Shown here: piece by piece, positions 1 to 10,257 of the stretch | Layout of the letters: each line of letters begins with the position of its first letter | How positions within the stretch are numbered: position 1 is the first letter of the stretch | Virus record (IMG/VR): IMGVR_UViG_2547132272_000016 | Coordinates: 1 to 10,257 of that record | DNA: 10,257 bases | From: a virus | Lineage: Duplodnaviria > Heunggongvirae > Uroviricota > Caudoviricetes | Strand: one strand, 5' to 3' | Made by a program: the position numbers and the translations under genes | Notes under the pieces: generated by a model | The model's database searches: none | The model's input: the letters and a program-made list of their open reading frames with translations, nothing else | Told to the model about the DNA's origin: nothing

Positions 1-77
1 TAACTGCACGCCTCCCGTTCGCTCTTGACGGCGGCGGGCTTCAGATAGAAACTTATCCGTCTGGTTGGTGTCGTCAT
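1..77 (-). CDS. ParR-like centromere-binding protein, N-terminal fragment (gene runs off the window start)
   Basis: ATG at 77-75 on the - strand, 4 nt after the ParM stop, with an AAGGAG Shine-Dalgarno overlapping that stop. The 25 visible residues (MTTPTRRISFYLKPAAVKSEREACS) resemble the recalled N-terminus of plasmid R1 ParR (..KRRTIAFKLNP..). Gene order parC-parM-parR matches R1. Confidence 0.4.
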   Translation of the reverse strand, partial: MTTPTRRISFYLKPAAVKSEREACS

Positions 78-81
78 TGGT

Positions 82-1041
82 TTACTCCTTGTCCATTGCG
101 TACAGCCCATTAACCAGAGCAAACTGTGGCACCCCGTCCGCGATGAAAGTTGCATTAACTCCGCAGGCTTCGCGGATAGCGGGTGCCACAATCTCCGCTC
201 CTCCACCGACAACCATCACCCGCCCGTAACCCGAAAAACCCGCCAGCGCGCGGATCACGCGTTGTTTCAGTGTTTCTTCCTTTTCACGAATAACTGCCAT
301 CAGGCTGGCGTAATGCGCGTCATTGTGGATGTGCTGGCGCAGCCAGGCTTCATCATGGCGATGTTCGATAATGGTATTGGCGATGTGGTGACTGGTGCGC
401 ATACCGTTAGTGGCCATCACCGACAGTACGGCATCGGCCATCAGAGAAACGCCTACGTGTGGATCGCAAAACACCTGGCTGATACCTGCCAGTTGCCCCT
501 GAACCTTTGCCACATCCAGCGTGGTTCCGCCCAAATCCACAATCAGCAGGGATTCAAACGGACTCATGTCAGCCAGTGCCTTAAAGCCAGCCGGAATGGA
601 TTCAGGCATAACCCGCACGTTACGGATAGTGAATGCCTCGCCGTTCTGGTACTCCACCGGGCGCATAACGTTCGCTTTTTTGCGGCTGATGTTGGCCATG
701 TCCGGCTGTGCGTTTGTATCGAAATACTCGCTCAGTGGCAGGGTGACAACCACATCCACTTCCTGTGGCGTGATGCCTGATTTGACCAGCGCGTGATGAA
801 TGGCAATGACATTCACATCGCTGTACTGGTATTGCGTGTCGGTCGTCTGGATAAAGCGATCGCTGACCGGATCAAAACCATAGCGCACGCCATCAAGCAT
901 GTAGTTCGCGGGCTGCGTGCCACCGAACGGCGCAGACCATTCCGACTTGAAGCTGTTCGGGCTGATGGCGTTGCGGCGTTCGCCGTTCTCAGTCCATGCC
1001 AGCTTGATGTTGGTGGAGCCGTCGTCGATACAAATTTTCAT
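82..1041 (-). CDS. parM: Actin-like plasmid segregation ATPase ParM/StbA
   Basis: 319-aa ORF with ATG start and AAGGA Shine-Dalgarno 8 nt upstream. N-terminus MKICIDDGSTNIKLAW plus the blocks ISPNSFKSEW, YQYSDVNVIAIHHAL, VMPESIPAGF and DLGGTTLD match recalled R1 ParM/StbA motifs (actin-fold phosphate-1 DDGSTN and DxGGGT-type motifs). Confidence 0.88.
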   Translation of the reverse strand: MKICIDDGSTNIKLAWTENGERRNAISPNSFKSEWSAPFGGTQPANYMLDGVRYGFDPVSDRFIQTTDTQYQYSDVNVIAIHHALVKSGITPQEVDVVVTLPLSEYFDTNAQPDMANISRKKANVMRPVEYQNGEAFTIRNVRVMPESIPAGFKALADMSPFESLLIVDLGGTTLDVAKVQGQLAGISQVFCDPHVGVSLMADAVLSVMATNGMRTSHHIANTIIEHRHDEAWLRQHIHNDAHYASLMAVIREKEETLKQRVIRALAGFSGYGRVMVVGGGAEIVAPAIREACGVNATFIADGVPQFALVNGLYAMDKE

Positions 1042-1072
1042 GTCGCTTTTCCTTATGTTGATTAATTAACCG

Positions 1073-1184
1073 TTTACGGGATTTTTAAATCCCGCTTTCG
1101 CCTGTTTTGTGCGCACTTCATGTTTTATGGCGCGTTTTTTGCTCATTTACGGGATTTGTGAATCCCGTTTCTGTCTGTTTTTTG
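1073..1184. repeat. Two ~39-bp direct repeats 73 bp apart, each with an 18-bp palindrome (CGGGATTT-nn-AAATCCCG); candidate parC-like centromere/operator or replication-origin element
   Basis: Repeat 1 (1073-1111, palindrome 1077-1094) lies in the 76-bp gap between the A stop and the parM start, overlapping the likely parM promoter. Repeat 2 (1146-1184, palindrome 1150-1167) lies inside the last codons of gene A. About 80% identity between the copies. Confidence 0.45.
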
Positions 1185-3925
1185 TTTCCACTGGTCAGGC
1201 CACCCCGCAGCAGGTCTGCTTTGCGGTGGGCGCGTTCAGTGGTTTCACTGATTCTTTGTGCATGCTCTGCGTCACGGATGGCGCGCAGCATGTCAGAAAG
1301 CACGGTAACGGGTGTTTTCATGGTGTTCTGGTCTTGCTGAAGTGTGGATGCCAGGCGTGCGGCGGCTTCGGGGTCTGATGCCCCCAGCTGTTCCAGATAG
1401 CTGGCGACCGGGTTATGACGGATCTCCGTGCTGCTTACGCCGTGATTGCGGCTCAGGCGCTGCCAGAGCTGCGTGATTCGGCTGTCCGGGCGGGTATCCG
1501 GTTTGCGTACAATTTCAAATCCCTGCGGTGCAATGATGCTGCCGTCAACGTACAGGCTGCCGCCCCGTAACAGGTGCTGCATCTGCTGTTCACCGATATG
1601 CAGGCCGAGAGATTCGGCAGACTCCCGCCATTCTTTAGCGAGTAATTCGTGGTTATCAGGCAAAGGCCGCTGCTGTTTGCGGCTCTGTGTCCAGCTCTGC
1701 ATTTCATCACTGCTGTTTTTTGCCTGTTTGTCACGCAGCGAACGCATCAGCGCCCGGCGTTCGTGCCGTTTCAGTGAGCGCATCCATTCGTTCACTTCAA
1801 CGCCGTCAGGGAGCTGCGGCCACGGTGCTGGCCGTTCTTCCGGCTGTTCTGTCCCGTTGTTGTCCGTTTCCTGTACACGGGGACAGTTATTGCCACGAGT
1901 CCAAGGGGCGGCAGGGCCGCCCTGAAGGTCAAAACCATTTTCGCGGGCGCTGTCTTCCGCTTCCGGTTTGCGTCTTACCAGCTTCCAGTTATCCGGATGC
2001 GTGCATACGCGGGAAGACTCCCCAATGAGCGGCGACCAGATCCCGTAAATCTGTACGCTCTGTTCACCGTAATCGTTCAGCTCATCTGCGAGGTCGTAGG
2101 CGGTGCGAATCAGGTAGTCCTTGCGTGGAACAAGCACGCCACCCTGTTTTTCAATGTAGGTGGCAAAACACCCGGCATCGGCGGCAGCGAGTACCGCATC
2201 CATTGCATCATCTTTCAGCCGTTGCGGGCCTTCCGGATTGCGTGCCATCTGGCTGGCAAGGCGGCGCAGTTCACGCCACACCTGACGGGAGGGGATACCA
2301 AAGAACTGGAACTGACGGACCCGGTGAAGGCGCGCCCAGCCGATGGCGCGCTCCACGCTCTCGGCCATTGATTTTCCGGTTTCGTGGTCAACGCGTGGCT
2401 TGCCCGTTTTCGGGTCGATGCCATCCACGGCGCGGCTGTCCAGGTTCTTTCCGATGTAGGTAGCGATGTAGCTGGTTGGTGTGCCTTTTGAGCCGTCGAC
2501 ATACTCCGCCTTAAAGCGCGGAGTAATATCATTGCCCAGCTCGTGGCGGTCCTCCTGAATGGCAATATCGCAGACGTGGGACACGATGGTTTCAATCTCG
2601 TCCGGATGTGCAAAGACCATCATATGCCAGTGCACGGTGCCGTCATGGTGAGGCTCCACCGTGCGGATGCCATACCAGCGCAGGCCGTCGCGGTTCAGTT
2701 TTTTGCGGACCGCCGCAAAAAACGTGTTAACCAGGTAATCGCTGGAGTCGCGCATGGTGGCCCCGTTCCATTTGGGGTTCGGATGACCGTTCTCCGTTGT
2801 TGCGTGGTATTTTGACGGGCAGGTGACGGTCAGAAACACCGCTCTGTCGCCACGGGCTTCGGCCAGAAGTTCCAGTCCCTTCATGGTGGCCATCATTTCT
2901 GCCTTACGGTGAACCGGGTTACTTACTCCCGCGTAATACACCGTCTCGAGATCAATCGTGAACCCGTCTTCATTTTCCAGCATGAAACTTTTCAGGAAAT
3001 CGCGTGTTTTCTCGCGCTGTGCGCGAAACTCGCTTAACGCATCCTGGCTCAGATAGGGTGATGTTTTTCTGGAAACCAGACAGGCGGCGCGGAGTTGTTC
3101 TTCTCTCCACTCGCAACGTAACAGCCACAGTTTGCGTTTCCACCAGTCCGCACAGGTCAGGCGGAGGATTGCGCCCGGTAACAGTTCCGTATTCGGATCG
3201 CTCTTGTTCAGGGCTTCGTAATGTGGCGGCATGATGTGCAGGCATAATGCGATACGGGCTAGCATCCGGTAAGCCTTCAACATTACATCCATGGTCAGCT
3301 CGCCATCTCTGGCACCAAAGCCATCGCAGAGTGTTTCAAAGGTGCTGCTGAACATCGCCGCCGTCATGGTGGCCAGCGTCTGTATCTGGTGCTTGTTGAG
3401 CTGCGGCAGGTAAAGCAAATCGTCCAGGCGTTCTCGCCCGGCAAGGGAGCGATAACCCGGTGTCAGCCAGCGTCCGTCAGTGCGATCCAGACGTTCGAAT
3501 ATTTTGCGCAGGGTTCCGCGTGCATAGCGTTCCGCCTGCCAGCTCTTTTTGCCTTTCTGGCGATCGGCTTCCTGTTTTTTGCGCAGGAAGGAGAGGTGGC
3601 GAATAAGCGGATCGCGCAGATAGGATGGCAGCAGGCGCAGCGAGGCCATGGCTTCATCCACCGCGCCGCGTGCCTGTTTTCTGGCTTCTCTGGCCAGTGT
3701 GATGGTTTTGTCCTGTTTTTCCTGTGCGTCCAGGCTTTTATTAATCAGGTTGCCCAGCGGTGTGGCGGAGAACGCCGCATCAGCCATTTCCTGGCGGCGT
3801 TCGTTCTCTGCCCGGTAGGCATCCAGCCAGGAGGAAAGTGCGGATTCAGGTGCGGGGATCTCCGTTCCTTCACGTCCTACTGCGTGGCGCGGTTGTTGCC
3901 AGTCCCTGATGTACTCTGTCGTCAT
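1118..3925 (-). CDS. A: P2 gpA-family rolling-circle replication initiator (HUH endonuclease)
   Basis: 935-aa ORF with an HUH motif (VHWHMMVF) followed by a paired-tyrosine YxxxY motif (TSYIATYIGK), the arrangement recalled for P2 gpA and phiX174 gpA. Sits as the last large gene of the early operon, as in P2. An R/E/Q-rich C-terminal ~300 aa makes it longer than P2 gpA (761 aa). Confidence 0.85.
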   Translation of the reverse strand: MTTEYIRDWQQPRHAVGREGTEIPAPESALSSWLDAYRAENERRQEMADAAFSATPLGNLINKSLDAQEKQDKTITLAREARKQARGAVDEAMASLRLLPSYLRDPLIRHLSFLRKKQEADRQKGKKSWQAERYARGTLRKIFERLDRTDGRWLTPGYRSLAGRERLDDLLYLPQLNKHQIQTLATMTAAMFSSTFETLCDGFGARDGELTMDVMLKAYRMLARIALCLHIMPPHYEALNKSDPNTELLPGAILRLTCADWWKRKLWLLRCEWREEQLRAACLVSRKTSPYLSQDALSEFRAQREKTRDFLKSFMLENEDGFTIDLETVYYAGVSNPVHRKAEMMATMKGLELLAEARGDRAVFLTVTCPSKYHATTENGHPNPKWNGATMRDSSDYLVNTFFAAVRKKLNRDGLRWYGIRTVEPHHDGTVHWHMMVFAHPDEIETIVSHVCDIAIQEDRHELGNDITPRFKAEYVDGSKGTPTSYIATYIGKNLDSRAVDGIDPKTGKPRVDHETGKSMAESVERAIGWARLHRVRQFQFFGIPSRQVWRELRRLASQMARNPEGPQRLKDDAMDAVLAAADAGCFATYIEKQGGVLVPRKDYLIRTAYDLADELNDYGEQSVQIYGIWSPLIGESSRVCTHPDNWKLVRRKPEAEDSARENGFDLQGGPAAPWTRGNNCPRVQETDNNGTEQPEERPAPWPQLPDGVEVNEWMRSLKRHERRALMRSLRDKQAKNSSDEMQSWTQSRKQQRPLPDNHELLAKEWRESAESLGLHIGEQQMQHLLRGGSLYVDGSIIAPQGFEIVRKPDTRPDSRITQLWQRLSRNHGVSSTEIRHNPVASYLEQLGASDPEAAARLASTLQQDQNTMKTPVTVLSDMLRAIRDAEHAQRISETTERAHRKADLLRGGLTSGNKKQTETGFTNPVNEQKTRHKT

Positions 3926-3931
3926 ACTGAT

Positions 3932-4297
3932 TTACTTCGTCATGCCATTCAGAGTGTCACGGCAAACGGCAGCCAGCCGCTGAATCTCCAGCACAGTGTC
4001 TTCTGTGTCGGCATGGTGGTGTGTGATGCGGATACTGTCGGCAATCACATCGACGATCGCAGAGGATGGGCGCTGGTAAATGCCAATAACGGACGGGGTG
4101 CCGCCTTCAATGCGGTAAAGCCTGTAATTTCCCTCGTGGCTGTCAATCATGTAGCGACCATCAATAACAATCTTTCCGTCAGCGAGCTGCGGTACAGGCA
4201 GGGATTTCAGGTACATGTCATAACGGTCACGCACGCGAACGGCAAGATCACGCTCTGTGTTGAGCAGGTATTCAAGAAAGTCGTTGGCGAGAATCAT
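3932..4297 (-). CDS. Hypothetical early-operon protein (121 aa)
   Basis: C-terminal 121 codons of the 326-aa track ORF. Internal ATG at 4297 has an AAGAGGA Shine-Dalgarno 8 nt upstream and protein-like composition from there on; the stop lies 6 nt before the gene A start. The upstream 205 codons are S/T/P-rich and look non-coding. Confidence 0.55.
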   Translation of the reverse strand: MILANDFLEYLLNTERDLAVRVRDRYDMYLKSLPVPQLADGKIVIDGRYMIDSHEGNYRLYRIEGGTPSVIGIYQRPSSAIVDVIADSIRITHHHADTEDTVLEIQRLAAVCRDTLNGMTK

Positions 4298-4370
4298 TGC
4301 GGCAATCCTCTTTACTACAGATGTGCGAAGGCCTCCCGCCGCAAGGTGCAGGAAAGGCCCGGAACAGGAA

Positions 4371-4601
4371 TTAATGGAGTTTGTTTTGCTGCTGGATGAG
4401 ATCCTGAAGAGACAGGAGGTCTTCCGCCAGATAGCTGAATACAGCGGCGCAGTAGTCGGCTGAAATAGTGCTGTTGAGTCTGTGCAATGTGTTGGATTGC
4501 ATGATAAAGGCGATGTGTGCAGCGCGGGTGAGTCTGCGGTCGATTTCAGTCTGGATGTGACGACGCTCTGCGATAGCGCGGTGCTGTTTGCGGTTTGCCA
4601 T
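4371..4601 (-). CDS. Hypothetical small basic protein (76 aa)
   Basis: ATG with AAGAGG Shine-Dalgarno 8 nt upstream; charged N-terminus (MANRKQHRAIAERRH..). No family recognised. Confidence 0.55.
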   Translation of the reverse strand: MANRKQHRAIAERRHIQTEIDRRLTRAAHIAFIMQSNTLHRLNSTISADYCAAVFSYLAEDLLSLQDLIQQQNKLH

Positions 4602-4692
4602 GGTGTGGCCTCTTTGGTTGTAAGTTTTGAAAACTCACCATCCAGAGGTGGAAAACTCGGGGTGGTGAGACGTACAGGGTTTCCACAACCGG

Positions 4693-4716
4693 CAACCAAA
4701 GAACCCGGCCCGACCG
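4693..4716 (-). other. Stable hairpin with a UUCG tetraloop on the transcribed (-) strand, in a 322-bp non-coding gap
   Basis: Minus-strand RNA GGGGCCGAC-UUCG-GUCGGGCCGGG followed by UUCUUUGGUUG. Could be an attenuator, processing site or terminator. Confidence 0.3.
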
Positions 4717-4778
4717 AAGTCGGCCCCATACGCCCCACCATAATTCGTGTGCGAAAAAGACGTGGCGATACGGTACGC

Positions 4779-4801
4779 ACAAAAAAACCGCTGGCGCGGT
4801 T
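4779..4801 (-). terminator. Candidate rho-independent terminator or attenuator on the - strand
   Basis: Minus strand reads ACCGC-GCCA-GCGGT followed by TTTTTTTGTG, about 125 nt downstream of the 99-aa gene stop. The stem is short (4-5 bp), so this is weak. Confidence 0.3.
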
Positions 4802-4923
4802 GTGCGCTTTGGTTGTCAGCGGGGTGGAAATCCCGGCACCCGTTTTATGAGGTGCAGCGGAAATGTAACCTGACTGATTGCGGCATGGCAAGCGGTTTTT
4901 TTGTGTGTGCATGTTCTGGTTTC

Positions 4924-5223
4924 TTACTGGTTCAGAAAAAAATCAAAAACCTTGTCAATGCGTTGCAGCAGCTCTTGCTGTATTGCTTCCGGCGTTTCCG
5001 GTTCGCCTGGCACCTCCAATGTCGCGCAGAAATCAGCGATTTCATGATGGAGCGTCAGGCGAATGGCAGGAGCCGTGGTTCTGGCGTGCTCCAGCTCATC
5101 CAGCAATGCCAGCACAGCAGACGGCGAGAGCATTGCGCGAAATGCCAGTAATTTTTGAGGTGTTGCCATTCGTTGCAGGGCAAATGCCAGTTCGCGTAGC
5201 TTCTGGTGGTTGATGGTGCTCAT
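4924..5223 (-). CDS. Hypothetical protein (99 aa)
   Basis: ATG with GAAGGAAG Shine-Dalgarno; its start overlaps the upstream gene's stop in an ATGA. No family recognised. Confidence 0.6.
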   Translation of the reverse strand: MSTINHQKLRELAFALQRMATPQKLLAFRAMLSPSAVLALLDELEHARTTAPAIRLTLHHEIADFCATLEVPGEPETPEAIQQELLQRIDKVFDFFLNQ

Positions 5224-5486
5224 GTTCTGGCTTCCTTCAGTAGCTGGTTAAACATGTGAGTAAGTGGATTGCTACACCCGAACGGCATCGGGTTTACGTG
5301 GTAAGAAGCCTGGCCTCCAGTTTTGCGAGCGCGACCACCTGTGCTGCGGTTTGTTCTGATGACTAAGCCGCCGCGCCAAAGTTGGCGTAACTCAGCATTA
5401 ATGGCTGTGGTTGGAGTATTCAGTGCTGCGGCGATCTCTCCGCCGCTACACCCCGGATGAGTAGCGATGTAGTCCAGAATGGTCAT
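5220..5486 (-). CDS. Hypothetical small protein, possibly winged-helix DNA-binding (88 aa)
   Basis: ATG with AGGAG Shine-Dalgarno; ATGA overlap with the upstream gene. N-terminal MTILDYIATHPGCSGGEIAAALNTP...LRQLWRGGLVIR has the look of a winged HTH; this is inference only. Confidence 0.55.
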   Translation of the reverse strand: MTILDYIATHPGCSGGEIAAALNTPTTAINAELRQLWRGGLVIRTNRSTGGRARKTGGQASYHVNPMPFGCSNPLTHMFNQLLKEART

Positions 5487-5686
5487 CTGCGTGGCTCCTG
5501 TACTTGTCGGATAAGATTCACCCGCGCCACGTTGGTGGCGCAGAAATAAGTGCCGTCAGTGAGGTAGATGTGGTGCGCATCCTTTTCCGAACGATGTTTG
5601 TCGATAGTGGTAATCAGGCGTTCGTCGACCTCGTATTCACGTCTTCTGGAGGTGAAACGAACGACGGTAAATTGCTTAATTGCCAT
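5483..5686 (-). CDS. Hypothetical small protein (67 aa)
   Basis: ATG with GGGAG-type Shine-Dalgarno; overlaps the upstream gene's stop by 11 nt. Confidence 0.55.
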   Translation of the reverse strand: MAIKQFTVVRFTSRRREYEVDERLITTIDKHRSEKDAHHIYLTDGTYFCATNVARVNLIRQVQEPRR

Positions 5687-6002
5687 TACACTCCCTTGCT
5701 TTATGTCCGTGTTTGAGCTTTTCTATTTCTTCTTTTTGTTCTTTTAATATTCTTATGGCTGTAAAAACATTAAAGCCCATAAAATGTGCTCTGTTCGCTA
5801 GTGGAATGCTGGTACCTTTGTTAGCTATATCATCTTCAATATCAGTGAAATACTGACGTATTTCTTCTAGCGCGGCGCAGAGTTTTGTGAGATCTCGCCC
5901 TACATCATAATACGCAGTCCTTAGTATTTCTTGATTTGTCCTGAGCATGCTAACCTCATGTTTATATATGCGGATACCTCCGCGAGTGCGGATTGTTTTC
6001 AT
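5676..6002 (-). CDS. Hypothetical protein in an AT-rich segment (108 aa)
   Basis: ORF in a visibly lower-GC stretch (about 5700-6060) than the flanking genes; weak Shine-Dalgarno. Looks like an acquired insert within the operon. Confidence 0.45.
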   Translation of the reverse strand: MKTIRTRGGIRIYKHEVSMLRTNQEILRTAYYDVGRDLTKLCAALEEIRQYFTDIEDDIANKGTSIPLANRAHFMGFNVFTAIRILKEQKEEIEKLKHGHKARECNGN

Positions 6003-6037
6003 GTTTTCTTATTTAATCTGGTGTTTTGTTTGTGCAG

Positions 6038-6151
6038 TTATTCGTCAGAGAAAAAACGCTCAATCTTTTTCACTGAATGAATAATTCGCATAATGCCAAT
6101 GGTGCAGACCACCGAAATAATCAGAATAAGCCATGACATAAATATACTCAT
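6038..6151 (-). CDS. 37-aa hydrophobic single-pass membrane peptide, not in the supplied ORF track
   Basis: Minus-strand ATG at 6151 with GGGGAA Shine-Dalgarno 7 nt upstream, overlapping the upstream gene's stop in an ATGA. Translation: MSIFMSWLILIISVVCTIGIMRIIHSVKKIERFFSDE, a ~20-residue hydrophobic core then a basic tail. The track's 6060-6263 ORF is in a different frame. Confidence 0.45.
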   Translation of the reverse strand: MSIFMSWLILIISVVCTIGIMRIIHSVKKIERFFSDE

Positions 6152-6390
6152 GCGATATTCCCCAGTTTATATGGTTCAATGCGAACCCCGTATTCTGTGT
6201 CCCGGACAAGTTCGGAAAGCTCGTTAATCGCATCCAAATCGTCAGCGTAAAAGGCCACGTCATAAAGGCTTCTGATTGCCCTTGCTAATGAATCATAGGC
6301 CGCGTGTTCTGCCTGGACTCCTGATGTGTTTAAGCGAAAATGAAAACGCTCAAGTGCTTTATTGACGAGAGTCTTGTATTCCTGGTCCAT
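6148..6390 (-). CDS. Hypothetical acidic small protein (80 aa)
   Basis: ATG with AAGGG Shine-Dalgarno; tightly spaced with neighbouring genes. Confidence 0.55.
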   Translation of the reverse strand: MDQEYKTLVNKALERFHFRLNTSGVQAEHAAYDSLARAIRSLYDVAFYADDLDAINELSELVRDTEYGVRIEPYKLGNIA

Positions 6391-6401
6391 TGCAACGCCC
6401 T

Positions 6402-6680
6402 TTAATCTGCCTTATGGGTTTCAGCTTCTGAATCCATACAAATAATTTCGATATAGGGTTCATCGCCATTAACCTGACGTGCCTTTTCAGCTTCGCTAAT
6501 GATTTCTCGTACGGTCTGATACGGAAGCTCCACAGTCAGGCGCGTACCGTTCAGATAAACGTAAGTAGCTGCGTTTTTTTCGGATGGAACAACTCCGTCA
6601 ATGGCTGATGCGCGTAATAACAGTTCACCGCGAAAATCAATAAAACGGATAAATACACTTTGTGCATGGTCTTTGGTCAT
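6402..6680 (-). CDS. Hypothetical protein (92 aa)
   Basis: ATG with AGGTGA Shine-Dalgarno; 10-nt gap to the upstream gene. Confidence 0.55.
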   Translation of the reverse strand: MTKDHAQSVFIRFIDFRGELLLRASAIDGVVPSEKNAATYVYLNGTRLTVELPYQTVREIISEAEKARQVNGDEPYIEIICMDSEAETHKAD

Positions 6681-6690
6681 AAATCACCTG

Positions 6691-7041
6691 TTATAAATCA
6701 GCTTGTTTAATGAAATTCTGTCCGCGCAGCAGACGATCAACCGTGCGCAGAGCTTCGTACAACGTGAAATCCTGTCCAAACTGATTGTCGCCGTTGCTCA
6801 GAGCAAAAATGCGGTTTCCGGTAAATGGGTTGCGTTGGCATCTGTGAACCACGATTCCAGCTTTCTCAATTAGCCAGGTGTGTTCACCAATTTGTTTTAC
6901 GGGATGGCCATCAGGTGTGGCGTGTGTTTCGCTCAGGCTGTAGCGAGAGCTGCTGCGTGATGCACTGGTGGCGAAACGGTTAGCGTGGCGTTCCGCCCCG
7001 TTGCGGAAGCGTTGCTGTGAAGAATTTCGTTGTTGCTTCAT
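6691..7041 (-). CDS. Hypothetical protein (116 aa; start uncertain, alternative ATG at 7089)
   Basis: ATG at 7041 is preceded by AGGA; the ORF's first ATG at 7089 has no Shine-Dalgarno. Basic S/R-rich N-terminus then a globular-looking C-terminus. Confidence 0.5.
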   Translation of the reverse strand: MKQQRNSSQQRFRNGAERHANRFATSASRSSSRYSLSETHATPDGHPVKQIGEHTWLIEKAGIVVHRCQRNPFTGNRIFALSNGDNQFGQDFTLYEALRTVDRLLRGQNFIKQADL

Positions 7042-7085
7042 ACAAAAATATCCTGCTGCTGTTGCGAATTTGTGCCGGGTTTTAG

Positions 7086-7117
7086 CCATGCCCGGCGCAT
7101 GGTTTTGTGGTATTTTT
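7086..7117 (+). terminator. Candidate + strand hairpin with U-tract (terminator or attenuator) upstream of the + strand accessory gene
   Basis: CCATGC-CCGGC-GCATGG stem-loop (7086-7102) followed by TTTTGTGGTATTTTT. An overlapping alternative stem GCCGGG-N11-CCCGGC (7074-7096) could compete with it. Confidence 0.25.
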
Positions 7118-7182
7118 CCACCGCCCGCAGTCTTGAAGGGGCTGTAAAGGGCGCGTGTTTAACCAACCACAAAGGAGTTGTT

Positions 7183-7650
7183 ATGGAATTAGATGCTTTT
7201 GTGTGTCTGCGAATTTTTGAAAAACACTGCGAGCGAGTTGCTGAATCCTATCGTGATGTGCTGGATAAAGAAACAGCCAACTCAGCATTTGTTGCTACTC
7301 GAGCATTAATTCTCCTTAAATTGGATTTGCTACTTGTCGAGTATCGAAGAAATATTGATTCCAAGTGTGTAGTCCTCTTCGGAAAAAATGTGCTTTATCA
7401 TTATCTTTTCACCCAAAAGGGTGTTTCATTGTCTGATGCCAAAAATATGTGTCTCCATGACATACTTATTGTTCTCTGGAATGATATTAATGCATATGTA
7501 ATACCAGAGCATGTATCCGAGCGTATCCAGATTCTTTATAAGCACGAGCTCTCATCTCCAATGCCTGATTTAAGTTATGAAGATGAAAGTCTGTTGCACT
7601 TTAAGGATTCTGCTTGGGATTTTTATCCTGCCGATACACGACTGAATTAA
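7183..7650 (+). CDS. Accessory protein of unknown function (155 aa), opposite strand to the early operon, low GC
   Basis: ATG at 7183 with AAGGAG Shine-Dalgarno 6 nt upstream (the track ORF extends upstream only via a TTG). AT-rich codon usage unlike the flanking phage genes. Its 3' end overlaps the convergent 202-aa gene by about 47 nt. Confidence 0.6.
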   Translation: MELDAFVCLRIFEKHCERVAESYRDVLDKETANSAFVATRALILLKLDLLLVEYRRNIDSKCVVLFGKNVLYHYLFTQKGVSLSDAKNMCLHDILIVLWNDINAYVIPEHVSERIQILYKHELSSPMPDLSYEDESLLHFKDSAWDFYPADTRLN

Positions 7651-8209
7651 GAAACTCATTGTTTCTATCTATTTCAGCCTGGTAGGCCTCTAACTCATGC
7701 CGTAATTGTTGTTGTCTTAGTGGTAACCTGTTGCGGCATTTCAATTCTGCTACAACGGTTTCCAAAAAATTTATCAGTTCTTCATCAGTGTATGAGCCAG
7801 CATAAATGTACGGTTTAGTGTTAGCGCATGTACAGTCTGCTGTTTCTTTAATGAGCATTGATTCGTCATCCATAATCTGTCGATAAAGTTCAAATGCTTC
7901 TTCGGCAGGAAACCTGAGCATGACGCCGCATACTGGTTCTAAAACCAATCCGAACGTTCCCTTTGCGTTATCCCGACAAAAATGGCCGTATTCATCGTCG
8001 GGATGCAGGGTGGCATCTTTCAAATCTTCGCCATTCTGAAGCTTTGATTTAAATGCCATCAGGTCAGCGAACGTTCTGTGTAATTCGTGGTAGTCAATGC
8101 TGATTTCAACCTGTGGTTTGCCCGGAAAAACCAGCAAAAGCTTCTGGTGTGGTTTTTCGTTTTTCAGGGTTTCCAGTCGTTCCAGTAGCGCTTTATTTTT
8201 GTGATTCAT
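7601..8209 (-). CDS. Hypothetical protein (202 aa), second gene of the leftward early transcript, low GC
   Basis: ATG with AAGAGG Shine-Dalgarno about 10 nt upstream. No family recognised. Its 3' end overlaps the + strand 155-aa gene. Confidence 0.6.
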   Translation of the reverse strand: MNHKNKALLERLETLKNEKPHQKLLLVFPGKPQVEISIDYHELHRTFADLMAFKSKLQNGEDLKDATLHPDDEYGHFCRDNAKGTFGLVLEPVCGVMLRFPAEEAFELYRQIMDDESMLIKETADCTCANTKPYIYAGSYTDEELINFLETVVAELKCRNRLPLRQQQLRHELEAYQAEIDRNNEFLNSVVYRQDKNPKQNP

Positions 8210-8313
8210 TCTACTGTTACCTCTTTTAACTCATTCAGGCAGTGTGATATAGCCCACTAACTGCCCGTGTTTGAAATAACGGCGACGAAAATAATGTGTT
8301 AACAATAAAGCAA

Positions 8314-8739
8314 TCATGCGGCCCTCGCTTTTTTAGTTCTGCTTCGTTTGCTATGTGTCGGCTTAAATAAAAACAGGCGGTTTTCCCAGTCATGCCATTC
8401 CTGCGGAGCGTTTTCGATCAAGCGATCACATGCTTCATCCCACGCTTTTCTGTTGATGTAGAGTTCAGCGTTTCCTCCTGGCCTAAGAGGGTCTGTCATA
8501 TACACGGCTGGCAATTTCCCTGCTTTAGCCATGCTCACAATGGCGCTAACTGTTTTGCCGATATACAGCGCAAATCCTTCTTTTGACAGGAGATGCGAGG
8601 GATTTTCTGAAAGTCGAATTTCTTCACGTTCACGTGCTTTGCGTTCTGTTTTTTGATGCTCCCCTTCTGGCATTTCTGACAGGCGATCGCATCGTGTTCC
8701 GCAAAGTGACTCAGGCGCGTTTTGAGTGCTTTCTTGCAT
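8314..8739 (-). CDS. cox: Cox/Apl-like HTH regulator (excisionase/early-operon repressor type), unusually long
   Basis: First gene leftward of the switch region, the position of P2 cox and 186 apl. Central HTH-like segment GFALYIGKTVSAIVSMAKAGKLPAVYMTDP resembles what I recall of P2 Cox. Start placed at ATG 8739 (GGAGG Shine-Dalgarno 7 nt upstream) rather than the track's GTG at 8778. At 141 aa versus ~90 for P2 Cox it has a charged N-terminal extension; it could alternatively be a CII-type regulator. Confidence 0.55.
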   Translation of the reverse strand: MQESTQNAPESLCGTRCDRLSEMPEGEHQKTERKAREREEIRLSENPSHLLSKEGFALYIGKTVSAIVSMAKAGKLPAVYMTDPLRPGGNAELYINRKAWDEACDRLIENAPQEWHDWENRLFLFKPTHSKRSRTKKARAA

Positions 8740-8812
8740 CTGATATCCTCCGCCATTGGTGCTCTTTCTAATTGGCACTAGTTGGAACCACTTAGAACAT
8801 TTGTTTGCTGTT

Positions 8813-8840
8813 CATATGTGGTGTTAATCTACACATATGT
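8813..8840. promoter_or_regulatory. Candidate repressor operator: CATATGTG-N11-CACATATG (also two direct CATATGT copies 20 bp apart)
   Basis: The two half-sites flank the proposed -10 of the leftward early promoter, analogous to P2 C operators flanking the Pe -10 and 186 CI operators at pR. Confidence 0.4.
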
Positions 8841-8853
8841 AGGAGTTTGTCAA
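8826..8853 (-). promoter_or_regulatory. Candidate early lytic promoter (Pe-like), transcribing leftward toward cox
   Basis: Perfect -35 TTGACA on the - strand (8853-8848), 16-nt spacer, -10 TAGATT (8831-8826). The -35 abuts the C start codon, so the early transcript would be antisense to the C 5' end. Confidence 0.4.
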
Positions 8854-9147
8854 ATGGACATTCCTCAAAAAATTCGCGTCATGCGCAAATCTGAAGATCT
8901 CACTCAGCGGGAATTCGCTGATATGATTGGAATTTCTTATTCTGCTCTGACCAGTTATGAGTATGGTCGTAACCTTCCTGGCCTCGAGATCACTATCAAG
9001 CTTTTCAAGCACCCGAGATTTTCTAAATACCGCGACTGGTTTCTGTTTGATGAAGTTGAACCCAAGGCCGGGCAGGTTGTACCGGCTCTCGCACACATTG
9101 GGCAAGGCGAAGCGGAATCATCCCGCTCCGGCAAGAAAACTGGTTAA
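8854..9147 (+). CDS. C: P2 C-type immunity repressor
   Basis: Start at internal ATG 8854 with AGGAG Shine-Dalgarno 8 nt upstream. The 97-aa product matches recalled P2 C features: KIRVMRKSEDLTQREFADMIGISYSALTSYEYGR and the C-terminal PALAHIGQ...SGKKTG. Lies immediately upstream of int on the same strand, as in P2. Confidence 0.85.
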   Translation: MDIPQKIRVMRKSEDLTQREFADMIGISYSALTSYEYGRNLPGLEITIKLFKHPRFSKYRDWFLFDEVEPKAGQVVPALAHIGQGEAESSRSGKKTG

Positions 9148-9213
9148 CGGTTCACCAGGCATTTATTTCCCAGAGCTGTGATCAAGATGATGTTTTCATT
9201 GGAGGGCTTCCTT

Positions 9214-10209
9214 ATGTCGATTAAGAAGCTCGCTAATGGCAAATTTTGTGTGGACGTGCGGCCTGCTGGATCAGAAGGAAAGAGATTCAGGCGGCGATTT
9301 GATACTCGTGGTGAGGCTGTTTTGTATGAGCGTCATGTATTGCAGCATTACCACGACAAAGACTGGGTTGATAAGCCAACAGAACGGCGCTCGCTGAGGG
9401 AGTTGCTGGATTGTTGGTGGCTATACCATGGGAAAAACCATCCTTACGGTGCGATGGAGCGAGTGCGTATTTCTGCGGTCATTAGTGATCTTGAAAGTAT
9501 TAATGTTACACGCAGTGACCAACTTACTCGTAAGAACATAATTAATTATCGGTTATTGTTGCTTAACCGCGGAATAAAACAATCCACGGTTAATCGTTAT
9601 TGCGCAATGATGAGTGGTTTCTTCACAAAACTAATTGACGCAGAGGAATATTCTGGGGTTAATCCGTTTCATGATGTGAAAAAACTTAATATCAAACAGC
9701 CTGAAATGGCTTATTTGTATCATGAAGATATTCCACGATTACTGGAGTTGTTATCTGGTGATGAATTAAAAGCCGTCTTGTTGTGTCTGGCAACAGGTGG
9801 AAGATGGAGTGAAGTTGCAAATATCAAGGGGGAGCATGTTATTAGCGGCAAAGTCATTTTTATGGAAACAAAAAATGGGAAGCGTCGCGTTATACCTATA
9901 TCGTCAGAACTGGAGTGCATGATTAAGACTAAGGCTACTGGTCGTTTAATTTATCCGAGTTATGCCGCTGTCAGAACGGCTATCAGAAAAGTGAGGCCCG
10001 ATCTTCCTGAAGGGCAGTCGATACATGTTTTACGGCATACCTTTGCCACTCACTTCATGATTAATGGCGGGAATATCATCACTTTGCAGAGAATACTTGG
10101 GCATAGCACTATTCAGCAGACGATGACTTATGCCCATTTTGCACCGGATTATCTGCAGGATGCTGTGCGCTTTAATCCTGTGGCTGAGTTGTCCAGATAT
10201 TGCCCATAA
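9214..10209 (+). CDS. int: P2-type tyrosine integrase
   Basis: Start at ATG 9214 (MSIKKLANGKF..., compare P2 Int MAIKKL...) with GGAGGG Shine-Dalgarno 7 nt upstream; the track's GTG at 9178 is probably an over-extension. C-terminal catalytic region HVLRHTFATHFMINGGNIITLQRILGHSTIQQTMTYAHFAP carries the conserved R, H-x-x-R and catalytic Y of tyrosine recombinases. Confidence 0.92.
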   Translation: MSIKKLANGKFCVDVRPAGSEGKRFRRRFDTRGEAVLYERHVLQHYHDKDWVDKPTERRSLRELLDCWWLYHGKNHPYGAMERVRISAVISDLESINVTRSDQLTRKNIINYRLLLLNRGIKQSTVNRYCAMMSGFFTKLIDAEEYSGVNPFHDVKKLNIKQPEMAYLYHEDIPRLLELLSGDELKAVLLCLATGGRWSEVANIKGEHVISGKVIFMETKNGKRRVIPISSELECMIKTKATGRLIYPSYAAVRTAIRKVRPDLPEGQSIHVLRHTFATHFMINGGNIITLQRILGHSTIQQTMTYAHFAPDYLQDAVRFNPVAELSRYCP

Positions 10210-10257
10210 AATAGGACTAAATAAGCCTTGAACCGCCCCGGGAATCCTGGAGACTAA

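Follow-up and report, generated by a model that had tools for sequence, protein, structure and literature searches.

A putative two-dyad parC site upstream of parMR in P88-like phages, with one dyad inside the end of gpA

Why should a pair of long, dyad-containing repeats straddle the end of a phage replication gene and the short space before a plasmid-type partition gene? The question is raised by a stretch of viral DNA of 10,257 nucleotides (nt; IMG/VR record IMGVR_UViG_2547132272_000016, positions 1 to 10,257; hereafter the window), which derives from a P88-like prophage (Xuanwuvirus, Peduoviridae, P2-like) in which gpA, parM and parR all lie on the minus strand. Across positions 900–1400 the window is 95–96% identical to Escherichia phage P88 and to other Xuanwuvirus phages. 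The explanation that we favor, with a probability of about 0.65, is that the two dyads together form parC, the cis-acting element of a type II ParMRC cassette carried by this P2-related temperate phage.

The dyads and their genomic setting

A repeat finder applied to the window returns two direct repeats of 39 nt (1073–1111 and 1146–1184) that share 32 of 39 positions (82% identity) and lie 73 bp apart, start to start: these are exactly the coordinates proposed in an initial annotation of this DNA. When the region 800–1500 was simulated 500 times under a first-order Markov model, and the best 39-nt direct repeat scored in each instance, no simulation reached 32/39 and none gave more than 26 matches. 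The annotation had also placed a palindrome of the form CGGGATTT-nn-AAATCCCG in each repeat. For the proximal copy this is accurate, the 18-bp dyad being perfect (1077–1094, CGGGATTTTTAAATCCCG), but it is slightly overstated for the distal copy, which carries one mismatch (1150–1167, CGGGATTTGTGAATCCCG); common to both is the core CGGGATT-N4-AATCCCG. With up to three mismatches allowed, the dyad matches the window at these two sites only, against an expected 0.04 matches, and the whole 35.8-kb P88 genome contains the same two sites and no others. Repeats and dyads alike are far beyond chance.

The dyads do not form part of a longer array: between −200 and −30 there are four half-sites only, with no extra half-sites at one mismatch and no periodic motifs. 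A hidden iteron array, or phasing of A-tracts around the dyads, was considered and rejected, the spacing of AAAC being irregular and further half-sites being absent at one mismatch.

Details of the locus are given in Table 1. The spacer between gpA and parM measures 76 nt and contains the proximal dyad, while gpA terminates at a stop codon at 1118–1120. The context guessed in the annotation, with the distal copy in the final gpA codons and parM downstream, is borne out by the open reading frames (ORFs), by Pfam matches and by the position of the stop codon. Three features of a type II partition locus are thus present: a ParM ATPase, a ParR encoded directly downstream, and a repeated cis site immediately upstream of parM. 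An iteron array of the R1/pSK41 type (at least four tandem direct iterons of 10–20 bp) was not found.

Table 1. Features of the locus and of the element found in a third group of relatives. Positions are those of the window unless a locus (L number) is named; aa, amino acids.
Feature	Location	Strand	Remarks
parR 5′ end, first 25 codons MTTPTRRISFYLKPAAVKSEREACS	1..77	-	Gene runs off the window; full-length P88 homologue matches PF10784
parM, actin-like partition ATPase, 319 aa	82..1041	-	PF06406 (StbA_N) E=5.8e-82; PF21523 E=1.1e-68
Conserved ATTAATCAA box	1058..1066	-	11–14 nt downstream of proximal dyad; kept in window, P88, Hafnia and Plesiomonas while flanks diverge
Proximal 39-nt direct repeat	1073..1111	-	In gpA–parM intergenic spacer
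Proximal dyad CGGGATTTAAAAATCCCG, perfect 8+2+8; putative ParR site 2	1077..1094	.	53 nt upstream of parM ATG
Spacer between repeats	1112..1145	-	Last gpA codons and stop codon 1118–1120; two alleles
Distal 39-nt direct repeat	1146..1184	-	gpA codons −22 to −9; 82% identical to proximal copy
Distal dyad CGGGATTCACAAATCCCG (sense strand); putative ParR site 1	1150..1167	.	Encodes gpA residues 920–926 (TGFTNPV); GGG-N10-CCC core at equivalent position in Hafnia and Plesiomonas
gpA, rolling-circle replication endonuclease, 935 aa	1118..3925	-	Phage_GPA PF05840 E=1.3e-127
Third-group element	L094, L095, L098, L104, upstream of parM		19-nt inverted repeat GGGAACnAnATAGAAAAAT / ATTTTTCTnTTTCGTTCCC, arms ~26 bp apart around a small GC palindrome

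Because the distal copy lies within gpA, the annotation supposed that the coding sequence is under dual constraint. The physical overlap is real; the constraint, however, is one-sided, because the C-terminal tail of gpA is not conserved and because close relatives tolerate non-synonymous changes in it. Between lineages the final 200 residues of gpA differ widely in both length and sequence, with no conservation of the last 25; among close relatives the non-synonymous changes that fall inside the distal site are F to L, F to S, and V to A or I. It appears that the DNA site dictates the sequence of the gpA tail and not the reverse: the tail seems to be whatever the par site encodes until a stop codon is reached.

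The extreme end of gpA comes in two alleles among close relatives, ..TRHKT* and ..TRRDI*. The window carries the minor allele of the spacer (..CGCGCCATAAAACATGAAG.., with gpA ending in TRHKT*), most relatives having ..CGCGCCGCGATATATGAAG.. (TRRDI*). When a 201-nt query (1030–1230) that covers the repeats and this spacer was used, only 2 complete E. coli genomes proved to be at least 99% identical to the window.

Conservation of the site with parMR, and comparison with known systems

The comparison that carries most weight is with distant relatives. Intermediate homologues were obtained by a protein search with ParM, and their contexts are all P2-like prophages in which parM–parR has gpA on one side and the portal gene on the other. 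Two [CT]GGG-N10-CCC[GA] sites occur in the prophages of Hafnia, whose ParM is 62% identical, and likewise in those of Plesiomonas (63%), 73 and 72 bp apart, respectively. Relative to the parM ATG these lie at −129/−56 in Hafnia and at −132/−60 in Plesiomonas, the positions in the P88 type being −126/−53; otherwise the upstream DNA of both lineages is unalignable with that of the P88 type. By our own estimate the degenerate pattern is expected about 0.7 times per 11-kb locus, and we judge it very unlikely that chance would supply two matches at corresponding positions in each lineage.

The relation of the sites to the two flanking genes differs among lineages. In Plesiomonas the distal site again falls in the last ten gpA codons. 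In Hafnia an ORF of 167 aa separates gpA from the sites, which are at least 420 nt from gpA. Furthermore, in a Hafnia variant (L112, 2560–3044) an ORF of 93 aa, accompanied by a second copy of the ATATTAATCAA..AGGA..ATG leader, is inserted between the sites and parM, and the sites keep their −129/−56 distances to the first ATG of the enlarged operon. Because gpA is detached from the sites in the one case, and because the insertion leaves the distance to the first ATG fixed in the other, the sites travel with the start of the par operon and not with gpA.

In one Hafnia prophage (L090, 4453–4956) the 167-aa putative ORF has no Pfam match and overlaps both putative ParR sites; it ends at a TAA in the loop of the proximal site.

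Within any one lineage the likeness of the two copies extends past the GGG/CCC positions to their inner bases, which differ between lineages. This is concerted evolution, as would be expected if a single lineage-specific protein reads both sites.

A third group of relatives (ParM 54–59% identical), comprising prophages of Serratia and of the Enterobacter ludwigii type together with a viral metagenome contig, carries a different element upstream of parM (Table 1). Its inverted repeat still starts with AAAACGGGAA, and in L095 it stands 1.1 kb from gpA. The change in the cis element is matched by a change in ParR: the N-terminal strand reads NRKISFYL in the third group versus TRR[IV]SFYL in the P88, Hafnia and Plesiomonas types. 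In Serratia the outer part of the right arm of the element is replaced, ATTTCATGACC being repeated twice; the third-group element is the presumptive parC of these prophages.

Close relatives were represented by 84 loci drawn from viral contigs, genomes and phage records, with 65 distinct upstream sequences and, for the measurement of diversity, 78 distinct longer regions. The core CGGGAYT-N4-AATCCCG is usually kept. Two arm transitions recur often and are uncompensated: the distal site may read CGGGACT, and the proximal site AATCCTG. Nucleotide diversity (pi) is 0.043 across the 28 arm positions, 0.033 at the GGG/CCC positions and 0.175 in the loops; at fourfold-degenerate sites of gpA and parM it is 0.063–0.069, and in the spacer between the repeats it is 0.057, close to the fourfold value. 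Constraint is visible at this depth, but it appears mild: a small effect on 28 sites that would not convince alone.

In a few genomes one rare substitution is shared by the two sites, which have either CAGGATT twice or a change at the same position of the arm in each (AAAACCCG and AAACCCCG). Such matched substitutions suggest gene conversion between the repeats or co-selection.

The proteins encoded downstream are those of a type II system. ParM is 46–52% identical to the ParMs of plasmids (46% to ParM of the IncF R1 type) and is 98–99% identical across hundreds of P88-like prophages. In P88 and in the Citrobacter phage Shae_phiSM, parM is followed by a gene for a 103-aa 'partition protein' that belongs to PF10784 Plasmid_stab_B (E=1.6e-24 for P88). 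A search of the PDB with P88 ParR as a single sequence gave no match. A profile built from ten ParR sequences, P88 ParR among them, matches the structure of pB171 ParR (2JD3, E=7e-16), and because of this match we assign P88-type ParR to the ribbon-helix-helix proteins of the R1/pB171 family.

ParR is hypervariable within the P88 clade (sampled as positions 1–77 of the window, minus strand, and loci L001, L007–L089, L097, L101 and L107): its alleles fall into two or more families that share only about 50% identity, and clustering at 90% identity gives dozens of groups. Two parts of the protein are steady. Residues 1–17, with the putative DNA-reading β-strand, are almost invariant, with two single-residue variants among 12 allele groups, and the C-terminal motif NIxxxFP[EK] is kept across alleles. 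The dyad sites are the same in both allele families, and no covariation of site variants with ParR family was seen among close relatives. One possible reason for the hypervariability is that prophages resident in the same cell thereby avoid forming mixed ParR complexes.

Searches for further sources of comparison added little. No plasmid-borne ParR with a TRRISFYL strand and without a nearby gpA was found, the plasmid matches being P88-like prophages within plasmids or 'plasmid' records of whole phages; such a gene would have uncoupled ParR from its phage setting. A scan of viral contigs with Hafnia ParM gave nothing useful, and one partial ParM homologue (81%) stands at the end of its contig, without upstream DNA to compare.

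The parC of type II systems is situated upstream of parM (PMC5016525, PMC9426499), and the closest parallel to the P88-type site is par1 of plasmid pB171. There, as here, ParM is accompanied by a PF10784 ribbon-helix-helix ParR and the cis site is placed directly upstream of parM. The pB171 ParR is reported to bind two 10-bp direct repeats (PMC9426499); our description of that site combines this report with our own reading of a pB171-type locus (L105), in which CTCAAATTGAGTATT and CTCAGATTGAGTATT, each internally palindromic, stand 41 bp apart just upstream of parM. Both systems therefore present two direct repeats, each palindromic, whose separation (41 bp in pB171, 73 bp here) corresponds to an integral number of helical turns. 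They differ in sequence and in size: the half-sites are CTCAA/TTGAG in pB171 and CGGGAT/ATCCCG here, and the dyad is 11 bp in the former and 18 bp in the latter. They also differ in carrier, a plasmid as opposed to an integrating P2-like phage, and in that the distal site here forms part of the coding region of the replication gene upstream. ParM here is about 50% identical to plasmid ParMs, and binding by ParR is putative.

The parC of R1 is organized otherwise. It has a promoter core of 39 bp with a block of five 11-bp direct iterons, in tandem, on each side (PMC2241845). Like the P88-type site it lies upstream of parM and has two blocks, and it is bound by a ribbon-helix-helix ParR for which it is both operator and centromere (PMC2241845); in contrast, the P88-type locus has two dyads, no iteron array and no recognizable promoter between the dyads. 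Iteron arrays were present in the R1-type (L005), IncL/M, IncFIA, Pantoea and phage D6 loci that we retrieved.

Actin-like cassettes on normally integrated elements have precedents in srpMRC of SXT/R391 (PMC4489591) and in AlpAC/alpS of the Corynebacterium prophage CGP3 (PMC4446434), both of which act on the excised circular form (PMC4489591, PMC4446434). Their adaptors are unrelated, or distantly related, to P88-type ParR and their repeat sequences differ; those systems are documented by electrophoretic mobility shift assays and genetics, whereas the evidence presented here is sequence comparison only. The cassette itself has been noted: Rousset et al. (2022) record a putative plasmid partitioning system between gpA and gpQ in approximately a quarter of E. 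coli P2-like phages (PMC9122126). The parts of that paper that treat the cassette mention its genes in passing, without the cis site, the specificity of ParR or the overlap with gpA. No description of the P88-type cis site was found in the searchable literature.

A candidate mechanism and its competitors

Of the functions suggested in the initial annotation, a parC-like ParR-binding site upstream of parM is the best supported, given the parR gene that follows parM, the conserved layout and the precedent of pB171. From these we infer ParR binding at the dyads and, with it, centromere activity, autoregulation and the stoichiometry that follows. Dimers of ParR would read the CGGGA half-sites by means of the N-terminal β-strand (TRRISFYL). 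Each 18-bp dyad offers two inverted half-sites about 12 bp apart and could seat a dimer of dimers; the dyads, 73 bp (approximately seven helical turns) apart, share a face of the helix, and ParR and DNA could then form a small complex by looping or wrapping. By capping ParM filaments, such a complex would position or segregate the circular DNA of the excised or infecting phage. Lying immediately before the parM leader, the proximal site probably doubles as the ParR operator.

Several observations weigh against this explanation. There are just four half-sites and no iteron array, whereas in R1 the number of 11-bp iterons is ten (PMC2241845). In close relatives, variation in the dyad arms is just mildly below that at fourfold sites (0.043 versus 0.063–0.069) and two arm polymorphisms are common. 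The deep conservation comprises three lineages and consists mainly of GGG/CCC and spacing. No consensus sigma-70 promoter is found in those three lineages. Finally, 1441 of the 1443 places at which the region occurs in complete E. coli genomes are chromosomal (two are in plasmids), so that a centromere would matter just in the excised or infecting state.

The absence of a promoter bears most directly on the operator. The annotation had assumed that the proximal repeat overlaps the likely parM promoter, and this is not confirmed: scans of 900–1400 in the window, and of the Hafnia and Plesiomonas loci, revealed no sigma-70 consensus promoter, and the only conserved element is the ATTAATCAA box, which is possibly a weak −10 or a leader element and which is duplicated with the leader in the Hafnia variant L112. 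The best candidate, picked by hand, pairs TTTAAA (1089–1084, the center of the proximal dyad) with ATTAAT (1066–1061) across 17 nt; each hexamer matches at 4/6 positions and the resulting leader would be very short. A hand search of the plus strand for an antisense promoter yielded nothing convincing. Because no consensus promoter is present in three lineages, the operator role is weakly based. The parMR genes may be transcribed from a weak promoter of their own under the control of ParR, or by read-through from the early operon.

The rival that fares best keeps the operator and dispenses with the centromere: ParR, or some other regulator, would bind the dyads to control parMR, and the cassette would serve another role (for example, the positioning of phage DNA without these sites) or be decaying. 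It would account for the fixed position of the proximal site, which in every lineage stands at −53 to −60 relative to the operon's first ATG, even where a gene has been inserted, for the number of half-sites, four only, and for an element that is nearly always integrated in the chromosome. We nevertheless consider it unlikely. In characterized type II systems the operator of ParR and the centromere are the same DNA (PMC2241845, PMC5016525); the maintenance of ParM at 98–99% identity, and of the NIxxxFPE tail of ParR, argues for a working ParM–ParR machine; and no promoter was detected for an operator to control.

The protein that reads the dyads might also be something other than ParR: a host factor, or an early protein of the phage such as the winged-helix protein encoded at 5220–5486. 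That ParR is the reader is, after all, something we infer from sequence, the dyad form would also suit a helix-turn-helix dimer, and a conserved WATCAA-like box nearby resembles, in our own reading, half of the core recognized by integration host factor (IHF). Against such a protein, the sites accompany parMR in phages that otherwise have different early genes, they are placed where parC sits in this family, and the type of cis element changes when the β-strand of ParR changes, all of which makes the proposal improbable.

An explanation at the level of RNA is slightly less probable again. It holds that the dyads act as hairpins in the gpA–parM transcript, in processing, stability or translational control, or as terminators of antisense transcription on the plus strand. 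The sense-strand hairpins of the window are indeed stable (−11.0 and −11.6 kcal/mol, with z scores of −3.9 and −3.2), and on the plus strand 1149–1168 is followed by a T-rich run and was called terminator-like. The equivalents in Hafnia and Plesiomonas, however, fold weakly (−4.6 to −6.5 kcal/mol, z −0.4 to −2.2), with only GGG/CCC and the 10-nt gap being kept, and no terminator-like sites were called in either lineage. The sense-strand stems are followed by UAAAUG and UAAACG and not by a U-tract, so that the conserved GC-rich hairpin plus U-run of an intrinsic terminator is found neither on the sense strand nor in the relatives. Common arm polymorphisms are uncompensated and no Rfam family matches the site. 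What the lineages do share, GGG and CCC with a 10-bp gap, is the signature of a double-stranded protein-binding site, as opposed to a hairpin.

The weakest alternative, also raised in the annotation, is that the repeats serve gpA in rolling-circle replication, as parts of an origin or as iterons: the P2 origin does lie inside gene A (AF063097 annotation) and the distal repeat inside gpA, but we reject this very improbable idea because the homologue of the nick site (GCCGCCCCTTGGACTCGTGGCAATAACTGT, within 1862–1933, about 1880–1912; GCCGCGCCTC|GGAGTCCTGTCAATAACTGT in P2) maps well outside 1073–1184, approximately 770 nt from the gpA stop codon, and because the sites are detached from gpA in Hafnia, where the 167-aa ORF intervenes and they lie at least 420 nt away, with an extra gene downstream of them in L112. 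The P2 record (AF063097) annotates the gpA nick site at position 29892, 427 nt before the A stop codon, and alignment of P2 gpA with gpA of the window places it at residues ~669–681; P2 itself (L099) is, by our own reading and not by a systematic search, without such dyads at the end of A. The nick-site homologue encodes the conserved motif AAPW..GNNC, and it is there that a genuine dual constraint on DNA and protein is to be found.

Having set out these alternatives, we return to the partition site. The P88-type site is best interpreted as a previously undescribed type II centromere/operator in the two-repeat style of pB171. It would add a second example, after pB171, of a probable type II centromere built from two dyad-containing repeats in place of an iteron array, and it indicates that a probable par site can sit in the dispensable tail of an upstream gene.

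Distribution and additional observations

The region is present in 1304 of 5426 complete E. coli genomes, with up to three copies per genome, a frequency that agrees with the proportion of about a quarter given for E. coli P2-like phages in the relevant part of PMC9122126. Two records deserve mention (NZ_CP148288.1, L103, and NZ_MK439959.1, L101): one circular 'plasmid' record of 34,461 bp is a whole P88-like phage genome, and another copy lies inside an IncC plasmid.

The carrier is biologically under-explored: an integrating P2-like phage with a ParMRC machine and a highly variable ParR. A broader proposal, which we regard as speculative and doubtful as it stands, is that P88-like phages, normally integrated, rely on a minimal two-dyad centromere and on ParMR when their circular genomes, excised or infecting, are to be positioned or segregated. 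Were this so, the cassette could provide for a facultative plasmid or carrier state, or for more efficient lytic replication as does AlpAC for CGP3. The extreme diversity of ParR outside the DNA-reading strand and the ParM-binding tail could then reflect selection against mixed segrosomes, which would amount to partition incompatibility among co-resident P88-like prophages, of which there are up to three per genome. The two defined 18-bp dyads are precise targets for experiment: for binding assays, for point mutants that spare gpA, for tests of plasmid stability and incompatibility, and for the tracking of phage DNA in live cells.

Elsewhere in the window, Rfam matches are confined to the vicinity of 4.7 kb, and there are no tRNAs. 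Two matches attain gathering level: the C4 antisense RNA at 4658–4745 on the minus strand (80.5 bits) and the isrK Hfq-binding RNA at 4781–4855, likewise on the minus strand (64.3 bits). Because these adjoin inside a 326-aa ORF (3932–4912, minus strand), the N-terminal two-thirds of that ORF is probably not coding. The pair looks like a c4/isrK immunity–antirepressor module of the P1/P7 type, standing beside the region of the P88 'derepression protein'.

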